Shown: positions 7,828 to 29,012 of the stretch, piece after piece | Numbering within the stretch: position 1 is the stretch's first letter | Layout: the number at the start of each line of letters is the position of its first letter | Assembly: GCF_000010065.1 (NCBI RefSeq) | Contig: NC_006576.1 | Location: forward strand, 720,001-752,000 | DNA length: 32,000 bases | Direction of reading: 5' to 3' | Origin: Synechococcus elongatus PCC 6301 | Lineage (GTDB): Bacteria > Cyanobacteriota > Cyanobacteriia > Synechococcales > Synechococcaceae | Notes under the pieces: model-generated | The model's database searches: none | Told to the model about the DNA's origin: nothing | The model's input: only the letters and a program-made list of their open reading frames with translations | Program-made: the position numbers and the translations under genes

Positions 7828-9912
7828 GTGGCACGTTCCGTTCCGCTCGAAAAGGTTAGAAATATCGGTATTGCTGCCCACATTGATGCGGGCAAAACCA
7901 CGACGACGGAGCGCATCCTGTTTTATTCAGGCGTCGTCCACAAAATCGGTGAAGTTCATGACGGTAACGCTGTTACCGACTGGATGGAGCAAGAGCGGGA
8001 GCGGGGTATCACGATCACCGCTGCTGCAATCAGCACCAGCTGGAAAGACTATCGCGTCAACATCATTGACACCCCCGGCCACGTGGACTTCACGATTGAA
8101 GTCGAACGTTCGATGCGGGTTCTCGACGGTGTTGTAGCTGTCTTCTGCTCGGTGGGTGGTGTACAGCCCCAGTCAGAAACCGTCTGGCGTCAAGCCGATC
8201 GCTACAGCGTGCCTCGGATCGTATTCGTCAACAAGATGGATCGTACTGGGGCTGACTTCTTCAAGGTCTATGGCCAAATCCGCGATCGCGTGAGAGCCAA
8301 CGCCGTTCCGATTCAAATTCCCATTGGTGCTGAGAGCGATTTCCAAGGCATTGTTGACCTTGTCGAAATGAAGGCTCACATCTATACCAACGATTTAGGT
8401 ACCGACATTTTAGTCACCGATATTCCCGCAGAACTGCAGGAAACGGCTGCTGAATGGCGCTCCAAAATGGTTGAAGCCGTCGCTGAAACGGATGAAGCGC
8501 TGCTCGACAAATACTTCGAAGATGGCGACCTCAGCATTGAGGACATCAAAGCCGGTCTGCGCAAGGGCGTGTTGATCCAAGGCAACGATCGCTTGGTGCC
8601 AATGCTCTGCGGTTCAGCTTTCAAAAACAAAGGGGTTCAGCTGTTGCTGGATGCGGTGGTTGAACTGCTGCCTTCGCCTCAAGACATTCCGCCGATTCAA
8701 GGCACACTGCCAGATGGCGAAGTTGCTCTGCGTCCTTCTAGCGACGAAGCACCTTTCTCCGCTTTGGCCTTCAAGATCATGGCCGATCCCTACGGCCGCT
8801 TGACCTTTGTGCGGGTCTACTCTGGCATCCTGCAAAAAGGTAGCTACGTCTACAACGCCACCAAAGGGAAGAAAGAACGGGTTTCCCGTCTGATCATCCT
8901 CAAGGCTGATGACCGGATTGAAGTCGACGAGCTGCGTGCTGGCGACCTAGGTGCTGTGCTGGGTCTCAAAGACACCTTCACGGGCGACACCCTCTGCGAT
9001 GATCAAAACCCGATCATCCTTGAGTCTCTGTTCATTCCCGAGCCGGTTATTTCGGTCGCGGTTGAGCCCAAAACCAAGAACGATATGGAAAAACTTTCGA
9101 AGGCGTTGCAAGCGCTTTCGGAAGAAGATCCGACCTTCCGTGTCTCAGTCGACTCTGAGACGAACCAAACGGTCATCGCTGGCATGGGCGAACTCCACCT
9201 CGAAATCTTGGTGGATCGGATGCTGCGGGAGTACAAAGTTGAAGCCAACATCGGTGCTCCTCAGGTTGCCTACCGTGAGACAGTTCGTAAGGCTGTCAAA
9301 GCGGAAGGTAAGTTTGTCCGCCAGAGCGGTGGTAAAGGTCAGTACGGTCACGTTGTGATCGAACTAGAGCCGGCTGAGCCTGGTACTGGTTTCGAGTTTG
9401 TCTCCAAGATCGTCGGCGGTACGGTGCCGAAAGAGTACGTCGGTCCTGCCGAGCAGGGGATGAAAGAAACCTGCGAATCGGGCGTCTTGGCGGGATACCC
9501 GCTCATCGATATCAAGGCCACCTTGGTCGATGGCTCGTATCACGACGTCGACTCGTCTGAGATGGCCTTTAAGATCGCTGGTTCCATGGCGATCAAAGAA
9601 GCCGTTCGGAAAGCCGATCCAGTTCTGCTGGAGCCGGTGATGAAGGTGGAAGTGGAAGTACCGGAAGACTTCCTCGGTTCAGTGATGGGCAACCTGATCT
9701 CCCGCCGAGGTCAAATCGAAGGCCAAGCAACCACCAATGGCACGGCCACTGTTTCGGCCAAAGTGCCCCTGGCCGAGATGTTCGGCTATGCAACTGACCT
9801 GCGGTCGATGACCCAGGGTCGGGGCATCTTCACGATGGAGTTCAGTCAGTACGAGGAAGTTCCCCGTAATGTGGCTGAAACGATCATCGCCAAAAACAAA
9901 GGGAACGCTTAA
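7828..9912 (+). CDS. fusA: translation elongation factor G
   Basis: GTG start preceded by AAGGAGG at 7816-7822. G-domain motifs are [20 protein letters not shown] and NKMD. Length is 694 aa and it sits in the expected str operon position. Confidence 0.98.
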
Positions 9913-9938
9913 GTAACCTAAAGGAAGACTGAACGCCA

Positions 9939-11168
9939 ATGGCACGCGCTAAGTTTGAACGCACCAAGCCTCACGCAAACATCGGGACCATCGGTCACGT
10001 TGACCACGGTAAAACGACGCTGACGGCAGCTATCACCACTGTGTTGGCGAAAGCTGGCATGGCTAAAGCCCGCGCTTACGCTGATATCGACGCAGCTCCG
10101 GAAGAAAAAGCTCGTGGTATCACGATCAACACGGCTCACGTTGAATACGAAACCGGCAACCGTCACTACGCTCACGTTGACTGTCCCGGTCACGCTGACT
10201 ACGTGAAAAACATGATCACGGGTGCTGCGCAGATGGACGGCGCCATCCTCGTGGTGTCGGCTGCTGACGGCCCCATGCCCCAAACTCGCGAGCACATTCT
10301 GCTGGCGAAACAGGTCGGCGTTCCCAACATCGTCGTTTTCTTGAATAAAGAAGACATGGTTGATGACGCTGAACTGTTGGAATTGGTGGAGTTGGAAGTC
10401 CGTGAGCTGCTGAGCTCCTACGATTTCCCTGGCGATGACATCCCCATCGTGGCTGGTTCGGCTCTGCAAGCCTTGGAAGCCATTCAAGGTGGCGCTTCGG
10501 GTCAGAAAGGTGACAACCCTTGGGTTGACAAAATCCTGAAGCTGATGGAAGAAGTCGACGCCTACATCCCCACTCCTGAGCGGGAAGTCGATCGCCCCTT
10601 CCTGATGGCGGTGGAAGACGTCTTCACGATTACCGGTCGTGGCACGGTGGCGACTGGCCGGATCGAGCGTGGCAGCGTCAAGGTTGGCGAAACGATCGAA
10701 ATCGTTGGTTTGCGTGACACCCGCAGCACCACCGTTACCGGTGTGGAAATGTTCCAGAAGACCCTCGACGAAGGTCTGGCTGGCGACAACGTCGGTCTGC
10801 TGCTCCGCGGTATCCAAAAAACCGATATCGAGCGCGGTATGGTCTTGGCCAAACCCGGTTCGATTACGCCTCACACCAAGTTTGAGTCTGAGGTCTACGT
10901 GCTCAAGAAAGAAGAAGGGGGTCGTCACACTCCGTTCTTCCCGGGCTATCGTCCTCAGTTCTACGTGCGGACAACCGACGTGACCGGCGCGATCTCGGAC
11001 TTCACCGCTGACGACGGTTCGGCAGCTGAAATGGTGATCCCGGGCGATCGCATCAAGATGACGGTTGAACTGATCAACCCGATCGCAATTGAGCAAGGCA
11101 TGCGCTTTGCAATCCGTGAAGGCGGCCGCACCATCGGTGCTGGTGTCGTTTCCAAAATCCTCCAGTAG
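9939..11168 (+). CDS. tufA: translation elongation factor Tu
   Basis: [33 protein letters not shown]..., with DCPGHADY and NKEDMV motifs; 409 aa. Confidence 0.99.
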
Positions 11169-22820: not shown

Positions 22821-22908
22821 GGATTGCCGAAGCGAAATAAACGACAGGGAGCAGATTAAACCCATCATGCCGTATTGCTTGGGGGGCACCGCGCCCTAAA
22901 ATCGGGAA

Positions 22909-23415: not shown

Positions 23416-26400
23416 ATGGCAGTGCTGCACGGTGGCTGGCTCGGCGATCGCTTCTGCGTTTGGGCCGAGGCTTGGCAGGCTGGTGAGCCTCAGTCGGCAG
23501 CAGAAATTGCGATTCATCCCTACGCGATCGCGGCCACTGACTTAAATGATTGGTGCCAGAAGTACCGTCTGGGATCCCTGACGGGGACGCCAACAGAAGT
23601 CCTGCTCTCTATTCCCAGTGACCTGAAGAAAGAGGCGGTTCTACCGTTTCTGAGTGGTCAGGAAATTCCAGATGGGGCGCTGCTTTGGTCTTGGCAGATC
23701 CCCGTGCTGTCGCTAGAAGCCGCGATCGCCGGTCAATGGCTGGCGACCTTGCCGCTGGGTTCGGCGGAGGATCATCCTTGGCTGGGGCCAGATCTACGCT
23801 TTTGGAGCCACATCTACCGCTGGGCACAAAGTTTGCTGGCTCGGGGGCGCTTTTATCCGGCGCTGGAGTCGAGCGATCGCGGTTTAACGGCAGTTTGGTT
23901 GCCACTGTTTAATCAAGCGGGCGATCGCCAGCGCTTCGATCGCTATAGTCAGCAGCTGCCCTTTAGTCAGTTTTGCTATCAGGCAATCGAAACAGCGGCA
24001 GCTTGTCCTTGGCAGCCTCAACCGCAGGATCTGTTGCTGCGAGTCCTACAGACTTGGTTGACAGCACGACTACAACCGGCGATCGCGGCGGGAACTCTCG
24101 TGTCTGCTGATCTGCTGGCGGCTTGGCAGCAATCGCTAGCGAATGGAAAACCGCTAAAGCTAGAAGACAGTGAAGCCAGTCGCTTGCAAACGGCGATCGA
24201 TCGCTGGTTACTACCAGTGCAGAATGGCGCAGCTCAGGCTTGGCGGATGGTTTTGCGCCTTGTCCCGCCTACGGAGCAAGAGCAGCCCTGGCAATTGGAG
24301 TTTGGCTTACAAGCAGCGACCGATCCCGATCGCTTTCGGCCGGCCTCTCTCCTCTGGCAGGATCCGCTGCCACCTGGGCTACCAGATCAATCTCAGGAAT
24401 TGCTGTTACGCGGCTTGGGACAGGCTTGTCGGCTCTATCCCCAATTGCAAACCAGTCTGGCGACAGCCTGTCCAGAATTCCATCCACTGACCACAGCGGA
24501 GGTCTATCAGCTGCTCAAGCAGGTGATTCCTCAGTGGCAAGAGCAGGGCATTGAAGTGCAACTGCCGCCGGGCTTGCGTGGTCAAGGGCGACACCGGCTG
24601 GGAGTGGAAGTCAGCGCCACGTTGCCGAGCGATCGCCCGAGTGTGGGGCTGGAAGCACTACTGCAGTTTCGTTGGGAGCTGAGTCTGGGCGGTCAGCGGC
24701 TGACCAAAGCAGAAGTGGAACGCTTGGCAGCCCTGGAAACGCCCTTGGTGGAAATCAACGGCGACTGGATTGAGGTGCGGCCGCAGGATATTGAGTCGGC
24801 GCGAGAGTTTTTCCGTAAGCGCAAGGATCAGCCAAATTTGACCTTGGCGGATGCGATCGCGATCGCCAGTGGTGAGTCGCCGAATGTTGGTCGCCTGCCG
24901 GTGGTCAATTTTGAAGCGGCGGGCTTACTCGAAGAAGCCTTGGCCGTGTTTCAGGGGCAGCGATCGCCTGCGGCTTTGCCCGCTCCGCCCACCTTTCAGG
25001 GCGAGCTGCGACCCTATCAAGAGCGGGGGGTGGGCTGGCTCAGCTTTTTGCAGCGCTTCGGGATTGGGGCTTGCCTCGCCGACGACATGGGCTTGGGTAA
25101 GACGATTCAGCTGCTGGCCTTTTTACTGCATCTCAAACACAGCAACGAGCTGACGCGGCCGGTGCTGCTAGTCTGTCCGACTTCGGTGCTGGGCAACTGG
25201 GAACGGGAGGTGCAGAAATTTGCACCGGAGCTTCGCTGGAAGCTGCACTATGGCCCCGATCGCGCTCAGGGTAAGGCTTTGGCGACAGCGCTCAAGGACT
25301 GCGATTTGGTGCTGACCAGTTACTCCTTGGTGGCGCGAGATCAGAAAGCGATCGCGGCGATCGACTGGCAAGGCATTGTGCTGGATGAAGCCCAGAACAT
25401 CAAGAATGACCAGGCGAAACAGACGCAGGCGGTGCGAGCGATCGCCCAAAGTCCGACGCAAAAGCCCCGCTTTCGGATTGCCCTGACAGGGACGCCGGTT
25501 GAGAATCGCCTCAGTGAGTTGTGGTCGATTGTCGAGTTTTTGCAGCCGGGACATTTAGGCACCAAGCCATTCTTTCAAAAGCGCTTTGTCACGCCGATCG
25601 AGCGTTTTGGCGATGCGGATTCGCTGACAGCATTGCGGCAGCGCGTGCAACCGTTAATCCTACGGCGACTGAAAACCGATCGCAGCATTATTGCCGACTT
25701 GCCTGAGAAGCAAGAAATGACGGTCTTTTGTCCGTTGGTACAGGAGCAGGCCGATCGCTATCAGGTGCTAGTCAATGAAGCGCTAGCCAATATTGAAGCA
25801 AGTGAAGGCATTCAGCGGCGCGGCCAGATTTTGGCATTGCTAACGCGACTGAAGCAGCTCTGTAATCATCCGTCGTTGTTGCTCGAAAAGCCGAAGCTCG
25901 ATCCGAATTTTGGCGATCGCTCAGCCAAGTTGCAGCGCTTACTAGAAATGTTGGCGGAGCTAACGGATGCGGGCGATCGCGCTTTGGTGTTTACGCAGTT
26001 TGCGGGCTGGGGTAGTTTGCTGCAGCAATTTTTGCAGGAACAGCTAGGGCGAGAGGTGCTGTTTTTGTCGGGCAGTACCAAGAAGGGCGATCGCCAACAG
26101 ATGGTTGATCGCTTCCAAAATGATCCGCAGGCACCGGCAATTTTCATCCTGTCATTGAAGGCTGGCGGGGTGGGGCTCAACCTGACGAAAGCCAATCATG
26201 TCTTTCATTACGATCGCTGGTGGAATCCGGCAGTTGAAAACCAAGCGACCGATCGCGCGTTTCGGATTGGGCAACGACGCAATGTACAGGTGCACAAGTT
26301 TGTCTGCGCTGGCACTCTAGAAGAAAAAATTGATCAGATGATCGCTAGCAAGCAAGCATTAGCACAGCAGATTGTCGGTAGTGGTGAGGATTGGCTAACG

Positions 26401-26475
26401 GAACTAGACACCAATCAACTCCGGCAACTCTTGATCCTCGATCGCTCAGCTTGGGTAGAAGAGGAAGAGCCTTAG
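23416..26475 (+). CDS. SNF2-family DEAD/DEAH-box helicase with long N-terminal region and SNF2-associated domain
   Basis: LRPYQERGVGWLSFL, DDMGLGKT, DEAQNIKN, TGTPVENRL, and helicase C motifs LSLKAGGVGLNLT and WWNPAVENQATDRAFRIGQ. The segment upstream of the ATPase (GGQRLTKAEVERLAALETPLVEINGDWIEV) resembles the bacterial SNF2-associated domain. Confidence 0.9.
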   Translation: MAVLHGGWLGDRFCVWAEAWQAGEPQSAAEIAIHPYAIAATDLNDWCQKYRLGSLTGTPTEVLLSIPSDLKKEAVLPFLSGQEIPDGALLWSWQIPVLSLEAAIAGQWLATLPLGSAEDHPWLGPDLRFWSHIYRWAQSLLARGRFYPALESSDRGLTAVWLPLFNQAGDRQRFDRYSQQLPFSQFCYQAIETAAACPWQPQPQDLLLRVLQTWLTARLQPAIAAGTLVSADLLAAWQQSLANGKPLKLEDSEASRLQTAIDRWLLPVQNGAAQAWRMVLRLVPPTEQEQPWQLEFGLQAATDPDRFRPASLLWQDPLPPGLPDQSQELLLRGLGQACRLYPQLQTSLATACPEFHPLTTAEVYQLLKQVIPQWQEQGIEVQLPPGLRGQGRHRLGVEVSATLPSDRPSVGLEALLQFRWELSLGGQRLTKAEVERLAALETPLVEINGDWIEVRPQDIESAREFFRKRKDQPNLTLADAIAIASGESPNVGRLPVVNFEAAGLLEEALAVFQGQRSPAALPAPPTFQGELRPYQERGVGWLSFLQRFGIGACLADDMGLGKTIQLLAFLLHLKHSNELTRPVLLVCPTSVLGNWEREVQKFAPELRWKLHYGPDRAQGKALATALKDCDLVLTSYSLVARDQKAIAAIDWQGIVLDEAQNIKNDQAKQTQAVRAIAQSPTQKPRFRIALTGTPVENRLSELWSIVEFLQPGHLGTKPFFQKRFVTPIERFGDADSLTALRQRVQPLILRRLKTDRSIIADLPEKQEMTVFCPLVQEQADRYQVLVNEALANIEASEGIQRRGQILALLTRLKQLCNHPSLLLEKPKLDPNFGDRSAKLQRLLEMLAELTDAGDRALVFTQFAGWGSLLQQFLQEQLGREVLFLSGSTKKGDRQQMVDRFQNDPQAPAIFILSLKAGGVGLNLTKANHVFHYDRWWNPAVENQATDRAFRIGQRRNVQVHKFVCAGTLEEKIDQMIASKQALAQQIVGSGEDWLTELDTNQLRQLLILDRSAWVEEEEP

Positions 26476-26553
26476 AGAAGAAAAAATTCGATAGAAGCCA
26501 ATATCATGCATGCAGAAATAATATGAGCCGAATCTTTCAAGAATAAAAGTTTT

Positions 26554-26640
26554 TTATTCTGAGTGAACTCAGAGTGTATTGGGTTCTAGGTTTTTATTTG
26601 ACTTCCAAAAAATAAATGTTATTCTGTTGACCCCAGAGTA
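26554..26640 (+). promoter_or_regulatory. two copies of a palindrome-like motif, TTATTCTG-N8-CAGAGT and TTATTCTG-N7-CAGAGT (possible operators)
   Basis: Copy 1 is at 26554-26575 and contains the perfect inverted repeat TCTGAGT-GA-ACTCAGA at 26558-26573. Copy 2 is at 26619-26639 and overlaps the candidate -10 and the predicted transcription start. Confidence 0.35.
26598..26625 (+). promoter_or_regulatory. candidate promoter of the islet ORF
   Basis: TTGACT at 26598-26603, a 16-nt spacer, then TATTCT at 26620-26625 preceded by TGn (26617-26619), an extended -10 pattern. It lies about 44 nt upstream of the ATG at 26669. Confidence 0.35.
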
Positions 26641-26668
26641 AATTTGTAATCTTTCAGGGGCTAATATT

Positions 26669-27757
26669 ATGGAAAAACGTTATCAAATATTTATTAGCTC
26701 AACTTTTATTGACCTCAAAGACGAGCGACAAGCTGCATTAAAGGCAATTCTAGAGATCGATCATATGCCAGCAGGAATGGAGCTATTTTCTGCAACTGAT
26801 GATTCGGCATGGCAGCTTATTCAAGATGTTATAGATAGTTCTGACTACTATATTTTGATTGTTGGTGGTCGATACGGCTCCCTAGATGAGGCAGGTCTTA
26901 GCTATACAGAAAAAGAATATGATTATGCACTTTTGACCAAGAAGCCTGTAATACCGCTGCTTCACGAAAACCCAGACAATTTACCAAGGGACAAGACAGA
27001 AACTGATAGTAATGCTTGGAAAAAATTACAAGACTTCAGAAAAAAGGTACAAAAAAAGCATACATGTGTTTATTGGCGAAACGCAGATGACTTAAAGGCT
27101 AAAGTAATTGTTGGATTGACTTCAGCGATCAAGCGACATCCTGCAGTTGGGTGGGTTAGAGCTGATAAGGTTCCAACAGAAACAGCTTTAGCTGAAGTTC
27201 TCTCTCTCAAGAATAAAATTACAGAACTAGAGAAGGAGGCAGCCTTATTAAGAGACAAGCCTCCATCTGGAACTGAGTTTTTAGCACAGGGAAATGACAA
27301 ATATGAAATTCACCTCTCTTTCAAATCTCGAGGAAAGTTCTCTATCTTTTCACATGATGAGGACAAAAAGTATAATGCATCGATAAACCTAACCTGGAAT
27401 GCCATATTTGCAGCAGTTGCTCCATCAATGATTAACGAAGCTTCTGCCCATACTCTTCGTCAAGCATTTACAGATTTCTTCAAACGGGAATCATTAAAGG
27501 CTTTCCAGAGTCAAAAGAGGTTTGAGAATTATGAGTTAGTTGATTTTTCCTTTCACAAAGATGAAATTGAGACCTGTATAGTTCAGCTTAGAGCTCTTGG
27601 ACTAATAAAGGAAAACGATCGAAAACGCAGTGTTAGCGACACTAGCACCTATTGGACGCTTACTCCATATGGTAATACCCTTATGGTTCAGCTTCGTGCA
27701 ATAAAACGTGAGCCTCTCGAGGATGAAGACCTTGATGGAACTGCTGTCGAATCATAA
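26669..27757 (+). CDS. DUF4062-type (TIR / nucleoside 2-deoxyribosyltransferase-like) domain protein with central coiled coil and winged-helix-like C-terminus
   Basis: 362-aa ORF with AT-rich codon usage. N-terminus YQIFISSTFIDLKDERQAALKAILEIDHMPAGMELFSATDDSAWQLIQDVIDSSDYYILIVGGRYGS...SYTEKEYDYALLTKKPVIPLL matches the DUF4062 pattern as I remember it. LKNKITELEKEAALLRDK is coiled-coil-like. The C-terminal IVQLRALGLIKEN...STYWTLTPYGNTLM looks like a wHTH. Confidence 0.75.
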   Translation: MEKRYQIFISSTFIDLKDERQAALKAILEIDHMPAGMELFSATDDSAWQLIQDVIDSSDYYILIVGGRYGSLDEAGLSYTEKEYDYALLTKKPVIPLLHENPDNLPRDKTETDSNAWKKLQDFRKKVQKKHTCVYWRNADDLKAKVIVGLTSAIKRHPAVGWVRADKVPTETALAEVLSLKNKITELEKEAALLRDKPPSGTEFLAQGNDKYEIHLSFKSRGKFSIFSHDEDKKYNASINLTWNAIFAAVAPSMINEASAHTLRQAFTDFFKRESLKAFQSQKRFENYELVDFSFHKDEIETCIVQLRALGLIKENDRKRSVSDTSTYWTLTPYGNTLMVQLRAIKREPLEDEDLDGTAVES

Positions 27758-27924
27758 TATTAGAAGCGAAGTAGTTTTCTAGCCGACAGAAGTCATTGTT
27801 ATCGATCAGTCTAATTGTCAACTGTTTTACTCCTAGCTCTATCTAGGTAGTATTTATTAATCTGCTTTTATGAAAGCATCTAATGCTAAATATTTTTTGA
27901 TCAAAATAAAAATAAAAGCAATAT

Positions 27925-28503
27925 CTATAAAGTAAAAGGAGTCCCCCACTGCCGCCAATTCTGCTTATTGAAGGGCGATCGCCAATAATCGATCAGGATA
28001 GTTTCGAGTTGTTGGCGAGGTCGTGTTTGCGTGGGTGCATTCAGCCAAAAGCCAATGCCCACCTCACAAGCCAAACCATGCTGATGATGGAGCGACTGAT
28101 AGCGAGCCACATAATCCTTGCAATCGTGTTCCCCTTTCCATCGCTGATTCGCCTTAATCGTTTCGCCCACATAGAGCAATAGCGAACAGTGATAGTCAAT
28201 CACAAAGTAAAGCGCTGCCGTGCCTGCACTTGCTGCAGGCCAACGCCAAAACTCCAAACTGCGGCGACGTAACTGCCACGGATCAATACTGTGGGCGATC
28301 GCCTCAGCCTCAGGTACCTGTCCAAATAAATCCGTTGGTAATGGCGGAGGTTGCGATCGCAACGCCGACTGAAAATTAATAATCCGCTGCTTCCAAGCCT
28401 CCAACGACTCTGCCGATTGCTCATGCTCGGCGGGCGTACTGCCATAACGAGCCGCCTCTAACTCCCGCACCTGTGATCGGCCAAATAGCGGCAACTGTTC
28501 CAT
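27925..28503 (-). CDS. GIY-YIG nuclease superfamily protein with ~95-aa N-terminal extension
   Basis: ALYFVIDYHCSLLLYVGETIKANQRWKGEH fits GIY-x(9-11)-YIG followed by conserved Arg and His. Downstream, LETILIDYWRSPFNKQ fits the catalytic Glu and the P-x-x-N element. Composition is host-like and includes HIP1 sites. Confidence 0.65.
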   Translation of the reverse strand: MEQLPLFGRSQVRELEAARYGSTPAEHEQSAESLEAWKQRIINFQSALRSQPPPLPTDLFGQVPEAEAIAHSIDPWQLRRRSLEFWRWPAASAGTAALYFVIDYHCSLLLYVGETIKANQRWKGEHDCKDYVARYQSLHHQHGLACEVGIGFWLNAPTQTRPRQQLETILIDYWRSPFNKQNWRQWGTPFTL

Positions 28504-28549
28504 TTTGAAGGAGGTATATTGTGGATGTTCAGTAATGCAAGTTGATTAT

Positions 28550-28759
28550 ATGAAGACTCACAGCTTCACAGCGATTGTTTACAAGGAGGATGATGTTTAC
28601 ATTGCTGAGTGCCCCGAAATTGGAACAGTTGATCAAGGAGAAACGATCGAACAAGCGATCGCAGGTTTAAAGGAAGCGACAAGACTCTACTTAGAAGAAT
28701 TTCCTATGCCAAAAACATCACCTCGATTTCTCACTAATATTGAAGTGAGCTATGCCTAA
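28550..28759 (+). CDS. hicB: HicB-family (UPF0150) antitoxin, short form
   Basis: MKTHSFTAIVYKEDDVYIAECPEIGTVDQGETIEQAIAGLKEATRLYLEEF is a typical HicB fold sequence. The track begins at TTG 28505; I prefer ATG 28550 by analogy with family N-termini. ATG 28535 is also possible. Confidence 0.8.
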   Translation: MKTHSFTAIVYKEDDVYIAECPEIGTVDQGETIEQAIAGLKEATRLYLEEFPMPKTSPRFLTNIEVSYA

Positions 28760-28979
28760 ATTGCCACGCGTCTCAAGCCGAGAGGTGATTCGGGCACTGG
28801 AACGTTTAGGGTTTGTATTGATTCGACAGACAGGTAGTCATGTCGTGCTGAAGAAAGTCACAGCAGAAGGTGAAATTGGCTGTGTTGTTCCTGTCCATCG
28901 AGAGTTAAAAGTCGGCACTCTAAATAGCATCCTAAAACAGGCAAAAGTGACCATTGAGGATTTCATTGATAACCTGTAA
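28752..28979 (+). CDS. hicA: HicA-family mRNA interferase toxin
   Basis: LPRVSSREVIRALERLGFVLIRQTGSHVVLKK...VVPVHRELKVGTLNSILKQAKVTIEDF is the YcfA/HicA signature, including GSH. It overlaps hicB by 8 nt. Confidence 0.88.
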   Translation: MPKLPRVSSREVIRALERLGFVLIRQTGSHVVLKKVTAEGEIGCVVPVHRELKVGTLNSILKQAKVTIEDFIDNL

Positions 28980-29012
28980 ACAAAAAAATAATCTGTATAG
29001 CGATGAGTCTAC

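Follow-up and report, generated by a model that had tools for sequence, protein, structure and literature searches.

Which function can be assigned to a solitary, foreign-looking gene of Synechococcus elongatus whose product joins a DUF4062 domain to a winged-helix tail? We addressed this question for a 32,000-nucleotide stretch of S. elongatus PCC 6301 (contig NC_006576.1, positions 720,001 to 752,000 of the forward strand; this whole stretch is hereafter referred to as the window, and coordinates without a contig name are positions in it), in which an intact open reading frame (ORF) of 362 codons plus stop, beginning with ATG, occupies 26669..27757 on the + strand. An exact-sequence look-up showed that the ORF product (hereafter the window protein) is identical to ABB56903.1 of PCC 7942 and BAD78857.1 of PCC 6301, and the exact protein sequence is present on 241 contigs. 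The adjoining SNF2 helicase is BAD78856.1 of PCC 6301 and is given as Synpcc7942_0874 in a proteomics supplement; because of this adjacency, the gene studied here is probably Synpcc7942_0873. By homology to the defence protein KpSwz of Klebsiella pneumoniae, it very probably encodes a single-protein, phage-triggered NADase of the Swarozyc family, working by the KpSwz mechanism. We make this assignment because the protein is homologous to KpSwz over its full length and in each half, keeps conserved residues and folds, varies among homologues in a telling pattern, and is encoded by a gene of mobile character. A specific predicted function is thereby given to a hitherto unannotated gene of the model cyanobacterium PCC 7942 / PCC 6301; no new class of system is opened, since both architecture and mechanism are known from work published in 2026.

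Full-length homology to the Swarozyc protein KpSwz

A phmmer search against all PDB sequences returned one strong match, the chain deposited as 'KpSwz TIR/DUF4062' (10wc, 11cq, 11cv; E = 2.1e-67), in which query residues 2-347 aligned with positions 3-324 of the 326 in the chain (10wc_A). BLASTP against KpSwz gave 37% identity over 346 amino acids (E = 1e-81), and the ORF, the exact look-up and this end-to-end match together define 26669..27757 (+) as a Swarozyc-family gene, hereafter the Swz gene. Searched alone, the N-terminal half had KpSwz as its sole PDB match (E = 2.7e-54), and the C-terminal 168 residues had it as their sole significant PDB match, covering chain positions 205-324, that is, the whole AUX domain (E = 6.1e-07). 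Pairwise comparison of the two AUX domains yielded 27% identity (E = 1e-17). As judged from these alignments, both halves of the window protein are independently homologous to KpSwz.

KpSwz is the founding member of the Swarozyc lineage (Osinski et al., bioRxiv 10.64898/2026.05.01.722283), a single-gene system with a TIR-like NADase that shields E. coli from many BASEL phages, for which both E97 and the AUX domain are needed (bioRxiv 10.64898/2026.05.01.722283). Resting KpSwz forms autoinhibited head-to-head oligomers linked by a helical stalk and by a strand that is intertwined; the dodecameric phage portal binds the winged-helix tail and activates the NADase, an effect for which purified portal alone suffices in vitro, and on infection KpSwz-expressing cells are depleted of NAD+ and undergo abortive infection (bioRxiv 10.64898/2026.05.01.722283). 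The complex solved by cryo-electron microscopy shows the AUX domain contacting portal protein as well as its own neighbours, with portal contacts described as plastic and heterogeneous; the dimer interface is of the AB and not the AE type, and ADP-ribose is the sole product, no cyclic signalling products being formed (bioRxiv 10.64898/2026.05.01.722283). These four properties (action as an NADase, defence, binding of the portal and abortion of infection) were shown for KpSwz, in a preprint.

The two proteins have the same parts in the same order within one gene (DUF4062 head, short strand, stalk and AUX domain), share the catalytic glutamate (E97 in KpSwz, by alignment E83 here) and the R18/W176 pair (R4/W162 here), and the active 15/16-C construct of KpSwz begins where the window protein begins. 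They differ in sequence, to the extent given above, and in setting, KpSwz coming from an enterobacterial defence island and the window protein from a small two-slot hotspot on a cyanobacterial chromosome. Every defining feature of the Swarozyc family that sequence analysis can reach is present in the window protein. A reading made earlier from the DNA letters alone (hereafter the sequence-only reading) had described an orphan protein of an architecture without experimental function. The layout was largely read correctly, and its idea of an NAD-processing head and a sensing tail forming a single-protein abortive-infection system agrees with the KpSwz experiments (bioRxiv 10.64898/2026.05.01.722283). 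In view of the 2026 preprints, the architecture can no longer be called uncharacterised, since the protein is a full-length homologue of the characterised KpSwz and two further preprints of that year deal with DUF4062 systems.

Head domain and predicted catalytic glutamate

The head (residues 1-158; 26669..27142, + strand) is a predicted TIR-like NADase domain according to Pfam, the structural model, Foldseek and the KpSwz match. Residues 6-87 match Pfam DUF4062 (PF13271), the domain also named NIR, along the entire profile (1-82 of 82) with E = 4.9e-30 and 104 bits versus a cut-off of 24.7; the Pfam TIR_2 match is below threshold (18.9 versus 28 bits), and no NTPase, repeat or further Pfam domain was detected in the 362-amino-acid protein. 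The motifs quoted when the domain was first recognized are located at residues 8-20 (FISSTFIDLKDER), 34-40 (PAGMELF), 66-71 (GGRYGS) and 78-87 (SYTEKEYDYA). In the full-length AlphaFold2 model (predicted local distance difference test, pLDDT, 76), strands and helices alternate to about residue 158 and are followed by a strand (159-164) and a helix (171-194). Foldseek related the head both to TIR domains (AbTir 7uxu, template-modelling score TMt 0.61; SPARTA TIR-APAZ 8isy; RPP1; BtpA) and to enzymes resembling nucleoside 2-deoxyribosyltransferase (NDT), namely BcmB (4jen, TMt 0.64) and DNPH1; as modelled, its resemblance to canonical TIR is at the level of the fold only. The profile and fold checks therefore agree with the sequence-only reading in that the protein has a DUF4062 head of TIR/NDT-like fold and lacks an NTPase.

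The catalytic residue was located through the deposited KpSwz chain, which is an E97A mutant in which chain position n equals KpSwz residue n+13, an offset verified on D16, R18, D71, W176 and W238/Y239 as named in the paper. Chain A84, corresponding to KpSwz E97, aligns without gaps with E83 of the window protein, and because E83 is the gap-free counterpart of this experimentally defined residue, it is the predicted catalytic glutamate (T80-E81-K82-E83-Y84; codon verified at 26915..26917, +). The surrounding T-E-K-E-Y also fits the 'SYT...E-Y' pattern of Eva01, whose catalytic motif is given as 'acidic-SYT ... E-Y' with E87-Y88 (bioRxiv 10.64898/2026.06.25.731849). In a sample of 32 homologues with 59-82% identity to the window protein, which served for all statements on variation, E83, E81 and the glutamate of the MELF motif (E38) are all invariant. 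It was E38 that had been proposed as the catalytic residue; the KpSwz alignment points to E83 and not to E38, so that mutating the MELF glutamate as a control would probably have misled, and E83 is the correct residue on this prediction. The dimer-contact residues R18 and W176 of KpSwz, which correspond to R4 and W162, are conserved, and W162 is invariant.

Stalk and sensor domain

Head and tail are connected by a short beta-strand, AVGWVR (residues 159-164), and a helical stalk (171-194), which together span 27143..27253 (+). In the model and the alignment, this predicted strand and helix correspond to the strand and alphaF stalk that intertwine in the KpSwz dimer (bioRxiv 10.64898/2026.05.01.722283). 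A coiled-coil connector had been proposed from the motif LKNKITELEKEAALLRDK (residues 180-197), and in the model this coiled coil is the stalk helix.

The putative AUX sensor domain (residues 196-347; 27254..27709, +), identified by the KpSwz match, a model of the AUX region alone and Foldseek, comprises a beta-hairpin (211-242), an alpha-loop-beta module (260-295) and a winged-helix core (296-345); the motifs LRALGLIKEN and YWTLTPYG, read earlier as a winged helix-turn-helix-like element, lie at residues 307-316 and 328-335. Modelled on their own, residues 195-362 reached a pLDDT of 84 and a predicted template-modelling score (pTM) of 0.79. Foldseek matched the tail to winged-helix proteins only (TubR, PadR, MarR, Sso10a with TMt 0.70, and ORC winged-helix domains), at probabilities near 1 and weak E-values (at least 7e-3), and these matches, along with the homology to the solved KpSwz domain, bear out the winged-helix character of the tail.

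Mean identity to the window protein was 0.83 in the DUF4062 core and 0.76 in the winged-helix core, versus 0.24 at the hairpin tip (residues 223-232) and 0.31-0.49 in the alpha-loop-beta module (260-295). These two most variable regions are the counterparts of the two modules with which KpSwz touches the portal: the hypervariable beta-hairpin (residues 211-242, tip KFSIFSHDED; 27299..27394, +) corresponds to the portal 'hairpin anchor'; the alpha-loop-beta module (27446..27553, +) corresponds to the second portal-contact module. This is what would be expected of a sensor surface diversifying along with the phages it targets, and the Swarozyc sensor model gains modest independent support from the fact that variation is concentrated in the two modules predicted to contact the phage.

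Searching 1.84 billion proteins with the AUX region alone gave 709 representative clusters, of which nearly all have the Swarozyc layout. One 418-amino-acid protein (P0248) carries AUX behind a TIR-like domain of the canonical kind (TIR_2 at 26 bits, narrowly under the threshold), and in another of 276 amino acids (P0162) it stands behind an unrelated N-terminal region of about 125 residues without a family match; these sequences suggest that the AUX sensor module may be shuffled between effectors. AUX proteins with a short N-terminus were considered as carriers of alternative effectors and rejected, as in most of them the gene call is truncated and begins at an internal MEYxYA motif.

A horizontally acquired gene in a strain-variable slot

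The Swz gene is the sole occupant of a strain-variable cargo slot (slot 1, 26477..27930), which was delimited by blastn against S. elongatus PCC 11801 and PCC 11802 and by composition, and which extends from the SNF2 stop codon to the 3' end of a conserved gene for a 192-amino-acid protein. Homology to the two strains (contigs L082 and L085) breaks at 26468/26476 and resumes at 27931/27932, and the backbone shared with them, which encodes alanyl-tRNA synthetase (AlaRS), a membrane protein, the SNF2 helicase, the 192-amino-acid protein, an HHH protein and an ABC1 kinase, has 86-91% DNA identity. The DUF4062 gene is absent from both strains. Its place is taken in PCC 11801 (L082:13065-14876) by genes for a 185-amino-acid protein without a family match and an Acetyltransf_3 GNAT protein, and in PCC 11802 (L085:13057-14252) by a gene for a 335-amino-acid DUF2806 protein. 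The GC content of the slot is 0.36-0.40 in all three versions, and none of their cargo matched PADLOC 2023.

Within the window, GC content falls abruptly here, to about 0.38 from about 0.58; it is 0.369 over the 1.45 kb of 26477..27930 versus 0.573 in the rest, and GC at third codon positions (GC3) is 0.31 in the Swz gene versus 0.62 in the SNF2 gene. Of the 89 HIP1 sites that the window contains, slot 1 has none, against 4.2 expected (Poisson P = 0.014). No convincing direct or inverted repeats, tRNA genes or integrase remnants were found at the slot borders. Judged by strain comparison and composition, the gene is an accessory one that S. elongatus acquired horizontally, and the earlier description of a lone gene in a foreign-looking islet holds. 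PCC 11801 and PCC 11802, which are without the gene, provide a natural comparison for cyanophage susceptibility. On the reading with a cyanophage-specific trigger discussed below, the interval from the SNF2 gene to the HHH gene would be a small defence hotspot, and the DUF2806 protein and the 185-amino-acid protein would become defence candidates.

Distribution and genomic contexts of homologues

More than 6,500 matching proteins were found. The closest homologues, which are full length and 60-82% identical, are spread over phyla that are not related to one another and come from Nitrosomonas, Pusillimonas, Hydrogenophaga, Neptunomonas, Gaiellales and Acidobacteria. We compared eight genomic contexts including that of S. 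elongatus; none was syntenic with another, and seven of the eight lay near toxin-antitoxin, abortive-infection (Abi), integrase or prophage genes. The Pusillimonas homologue adjoins a Gp49/HTH toxin-antitoxin pair and three integrases, that of Neptunomonas is near BrnT/BrnA, and that of Hydrogenophaga directly follows an HEPN_AbiV gene. On one metagenomic contig the homologue adjoins BrnT/BrnA and a PIN gene, and on another it stands alone among metabolic genes. The window protein is also a full-length member of the phage family phrog_15411 (E = 1.6e-100). Plasmids carry four full-length homologues, and 201 Staphylococcus plasmids (Eva01 lineage) match residues 4-165 only.

The other two of these contexts are worth recording. 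In Nitrosomonas sp. Nm58 (L086:2055-3161), a 76%-identical homologue lies directly upstream of the late genes of a Mu-like prophage (lysozyme, TraR-like, Portal_Mu, Mu_F and protease), so that a gene of the portal-sensing type is apparently carried by, or abuts, a prophage with a portal of its own. On a metagenomic contig (L090:1484-3553), a 66%-identical homologue is found beside integrase fragments and about 4.4 kb from genes for ThiF (E1-like) and Multi_ubiq / Prok-E2_E, which looks like an island joining ubiquitin-like conjugation genes and Swz.

Proposed mechanism, its trigger and alternative explanations

On the KpSwz model, the DUF4062 heads would pair head to head in uninfected cells, with the loop after the MELF strand blocking the active site, and the AVGWVR strand and helical stalk (171-194) would tie the two chains together. 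On infection, the winged-helix AUX domains would bind an assembled phage protein, lining up next to each other on it; for KpSwz this protein is the dodecameric portal. The binding would realign the stalks and repack the heads into an active NADase, and the resulting depletion of NAD+ would halt the infected cell and the phage, an outcome known as abortive infection.

Several observations weigh against this assignment. No paper naming the S. elongatus gene was found in a literature search that included the locus tag. The window protein has no model in PADLOC 2023 or NCBIfam, so no curated classifier backs the assignment; both libraries lack a match because they predate the family. The experimental basis consists of 2026 preprints that are not peer reviewed, with structures deposited. 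The full-length AlphaFold2 model is moderately confident in the head (pLDDT 50-86), the position of KpSwz D71 is occupied by S57, and the 'Q/W/E' motif described for Evangelion systems reads A-W-Q, with W48 alone kept. At the hairpin tip, the KpSwz anchor residues W238/Y239 align with S227/H228, beside an insertion of five residues. In addition, the protein is not among the entries listed in a deep proteome data set, an absence that is uninformative.

The identity of the trigger is the least secure step of the mechanism, and for the phage portal as trigger of the cyanobacterial protein the odds are roughly even. The trigger may differ because the AUX domain is only 27% identical to that of KpSwz, lacks the W238/Y239 anchor and has a hairpin five residues longer. 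With enzyme and abortive outcome unchanged, the remodelled hairpin and alpha-loop-beta surfaces could recognise a different phage protein or assembly, such as a non-portal structural protein of a cyanophage, an alternative nested within the proposed account that we regard as unlikely on balance and yet the strongest of those considered. Other DUF4062 systems point the same way in that they sense terminase, lambdap79, nuclease A1 or RecA/UvsX-like loci (2026 DUF4062 preprints). Against it, the winged-helix core that serves side-by-side packing on a ring is well conserved (0.76, as given above), the whole AUX domain is homologous to that of KpSwz, and, given the plastic and heterogeneous contacts of KpSwz, portal sensing would not conflict with a variable tip. 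More specifically, and a little less probably still, the S. elongatus clade might sense a trigger that is not a portal of the coliphage type, such as a cyanophage-specific structural assembly. If a different trigger does apply, the protein would be the first abortive-infection system to function through NAD+ depletion in a model cyanobacterium amenable to genetic work.

It is improbable that the gene is an intact but idle passenger from a low-GC donor, either unexpressed or without a cognate phage in S. elongatus. Its strongly atypical codon composition (the GC3 values above), its absence from the proteome entries and a promoter that amounts to a weak consensus match speak for such a passenger, but the ORF is uninterrupted and retains every invariant residue, and the identical sequence occurs in PCC 6301 and PCC 7942 and on the 241 contigs.

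Hardly better placed, and slightly less probable, is an arrangement in which an operator, or else DNA or RNA of the phage, is bound by the winged-helix tail, this contact with nucleic acid activating or regulating the head, as the sequence-only reading had supposed. The structural neighbours of the tail are indeed DNA-binding winged-helix proteins (PadR, MarR, TubR, Sso10a, ORC); however, their E-values are weak, proteins of the same fold need not bind the same ligand, and the homologous domain of KpSwz binds the portal protein, which in purified form activates the enzyme by itself.

A housekeeping role in nucleotide or NAD salvage, of the nucleoside 2-deoxyribosyltransferase type, is very improbable and largely refuted already by distribution: the fold likeness to BcmB and DNPH1 and one JGI record that names a homologue 'nucleoside 2-deoxyribosyltransferase' are outweighed by absence from sister strains of the same species, foreign composition, lack of conserved synteny in the eight contexts or beside SNF2 in 80 cyanobacterial loci (among the matches listed), and the experimental status of the homologue KpSwz as a defence NADase.

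Comparison with other DUF4062 and TIR systems

A phage-triggered Swarozyc NADase, the reading that we favour, would stand beside several systems built on the same head. Eva01, from the S. aureus plasmid pMW2, combines a DUF4062 core and an AUX region in a single gene; it has been proposed to deplete NAD+ and abort infection, its trigger maps to phage recombination/replication genes, and the Swarozyc lineage is separate from Eva01-04 (bioRxiv 10.64898/2026.06.25.731849). The window protein shares with Eva01 the one-gene combination of core and AUX and the 'SYT...E-Y' motif; it differs in that the core alone is homologous (residues 4-165), the AUX region of Eva01 being unrelated, and in the altered Q/W/E motif.

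The NADase enzymology of NIR, that is, of DUF4062, has been described for Avs2-NIR, Vulcan and Vesta (bioRxiv 10.64898/2026.09.04.749371), which have in common with the window protein an NIR effector domain with a catalytic glutamate. The STAND NTPase and TPR of Avs2-NIR are not present in the window protein. In Vulcan, NIR is fused directly to HEAT repeats, whereas the tail here is a winged-helix domain of mixed strands and helices. Vesta is a small NIR protein whose gene shares an operon with an alkaline-phosphatase partner gene, and none is nearby here, where the neighbours are SNF2, the 192-amino-acid gene and HicBA. With canonical TIR NADases (Thoeris ThsB, SPARTA TIR-APAZ, AbTir and SARM1), the window protein would share the fold, the catalytic glutamate, oligomerisation-dependent activation and NAD+ consumption, but its TIR_2 match is below threshold and DUF4062 clusters apart from TIR.

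Neighbouring genes and other features of the locus

The sequence-only reading had placed the gene beside a nuclease and a toxin-antitoxin pair, of which the second part stands and the first does not. The supposed nuclease is the 192-amino-acid core gene between the slots (27925-28503, - strand), whose GIY-YIG match is sub-threshold (residues 99-143, E = 0.007, 17.1 versus 22.6 bits) and which has 90-91% DNA identity in S. elongatus strains without the DUF4062 gene; as a sub-threshold match in a core gene, it was rejected as part of a module. The toxin-antitoxin genes (GC 0.42) occupy a second, small variable slot (28505-29002), with HicB at 28505-28759 and HicA at 28752-28979; HicA is solid (E = 3.9e-20), and HicB is weak, being below the Pfam threshold and matching a HicB-like PHROG at 2.3e-06. 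In PCC 11801 and PCC 11802, a 162-amino-acid GNAT acetyltransferase is found in place of HicB/HicA. The proteomics paper lists Synpcc7942_0871 as an 'essential' toxin-antitoxin component; this is probably HicB, for which essentiality is as expected of an antitoxin.

The SNF2/DUF3670 helicase (23416-26475, +) matches the PADLOC models of ZorD and DpdE with E-values down to 5.8e-140. It occurs in more than 80 cyanobacteria (45-53% identity, among the matches listed) where its neighbours are not conserved and partners from Zorya or Dpd are missing, and no Swz homologue was seen beside SNF2 in the 80 cyanobacterial loci inspected (among the matches listed). As a widely conserved gene without fixed neighbours, with 86-88% DNA identity in strains that have no Swz gene, it was rejected as a partner. 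The SNF2 protein is likely to be a housekeeping one, and an automated defence annotation of its gene would probably give a false positive.

Consensus scans returned weak candidate signals around the Swz gene. A terminator-like hairpin with a T-run lies downstream of SNF2 (26565..26586, +) and, on weak evidence, would insulate the Swz gene from SNF2 read-through. It is followed, 44 nt upstream of the ATG, by a promoter-like site (26598..26625, +) made up of TTGACT, a spacer of 16 nt and TG-TATTCT, which matches the consensus at 9 of 12 positions and has the extended -10 TG. A second terminator-like hairpin lies 75 nt past the stop codon (27832..27847, +); terminator-like sites are no more numerous than expected from shuffled sequence. 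Taken together, the promoter-like site and the flanking hairpins suggest, through weak consensus matches, an autonomous transcription unit.

The longest HIP1-free stretch of the window (8282-11044, 2.76 kb) was considered as further foreign DNA and rejected, as it covers the highly conserved fusA/tuf genes (EF-G and EF-Tu). PCC 11801 carries about 4 kb of extra DNA (L082:5427-9470) between AlaRS and the gene for the 167-amino-acid membrane protein, at the place of window positions 22882-22885. This insert encodes an SBF transporter, a DUF302 protein, a pyridine-nucleotide oxidoreductase, an ArsR-type HTH protein and a CMD protein, has no counterpart in the window or in PCC 11802, and marks a further strain-variable site nearby.

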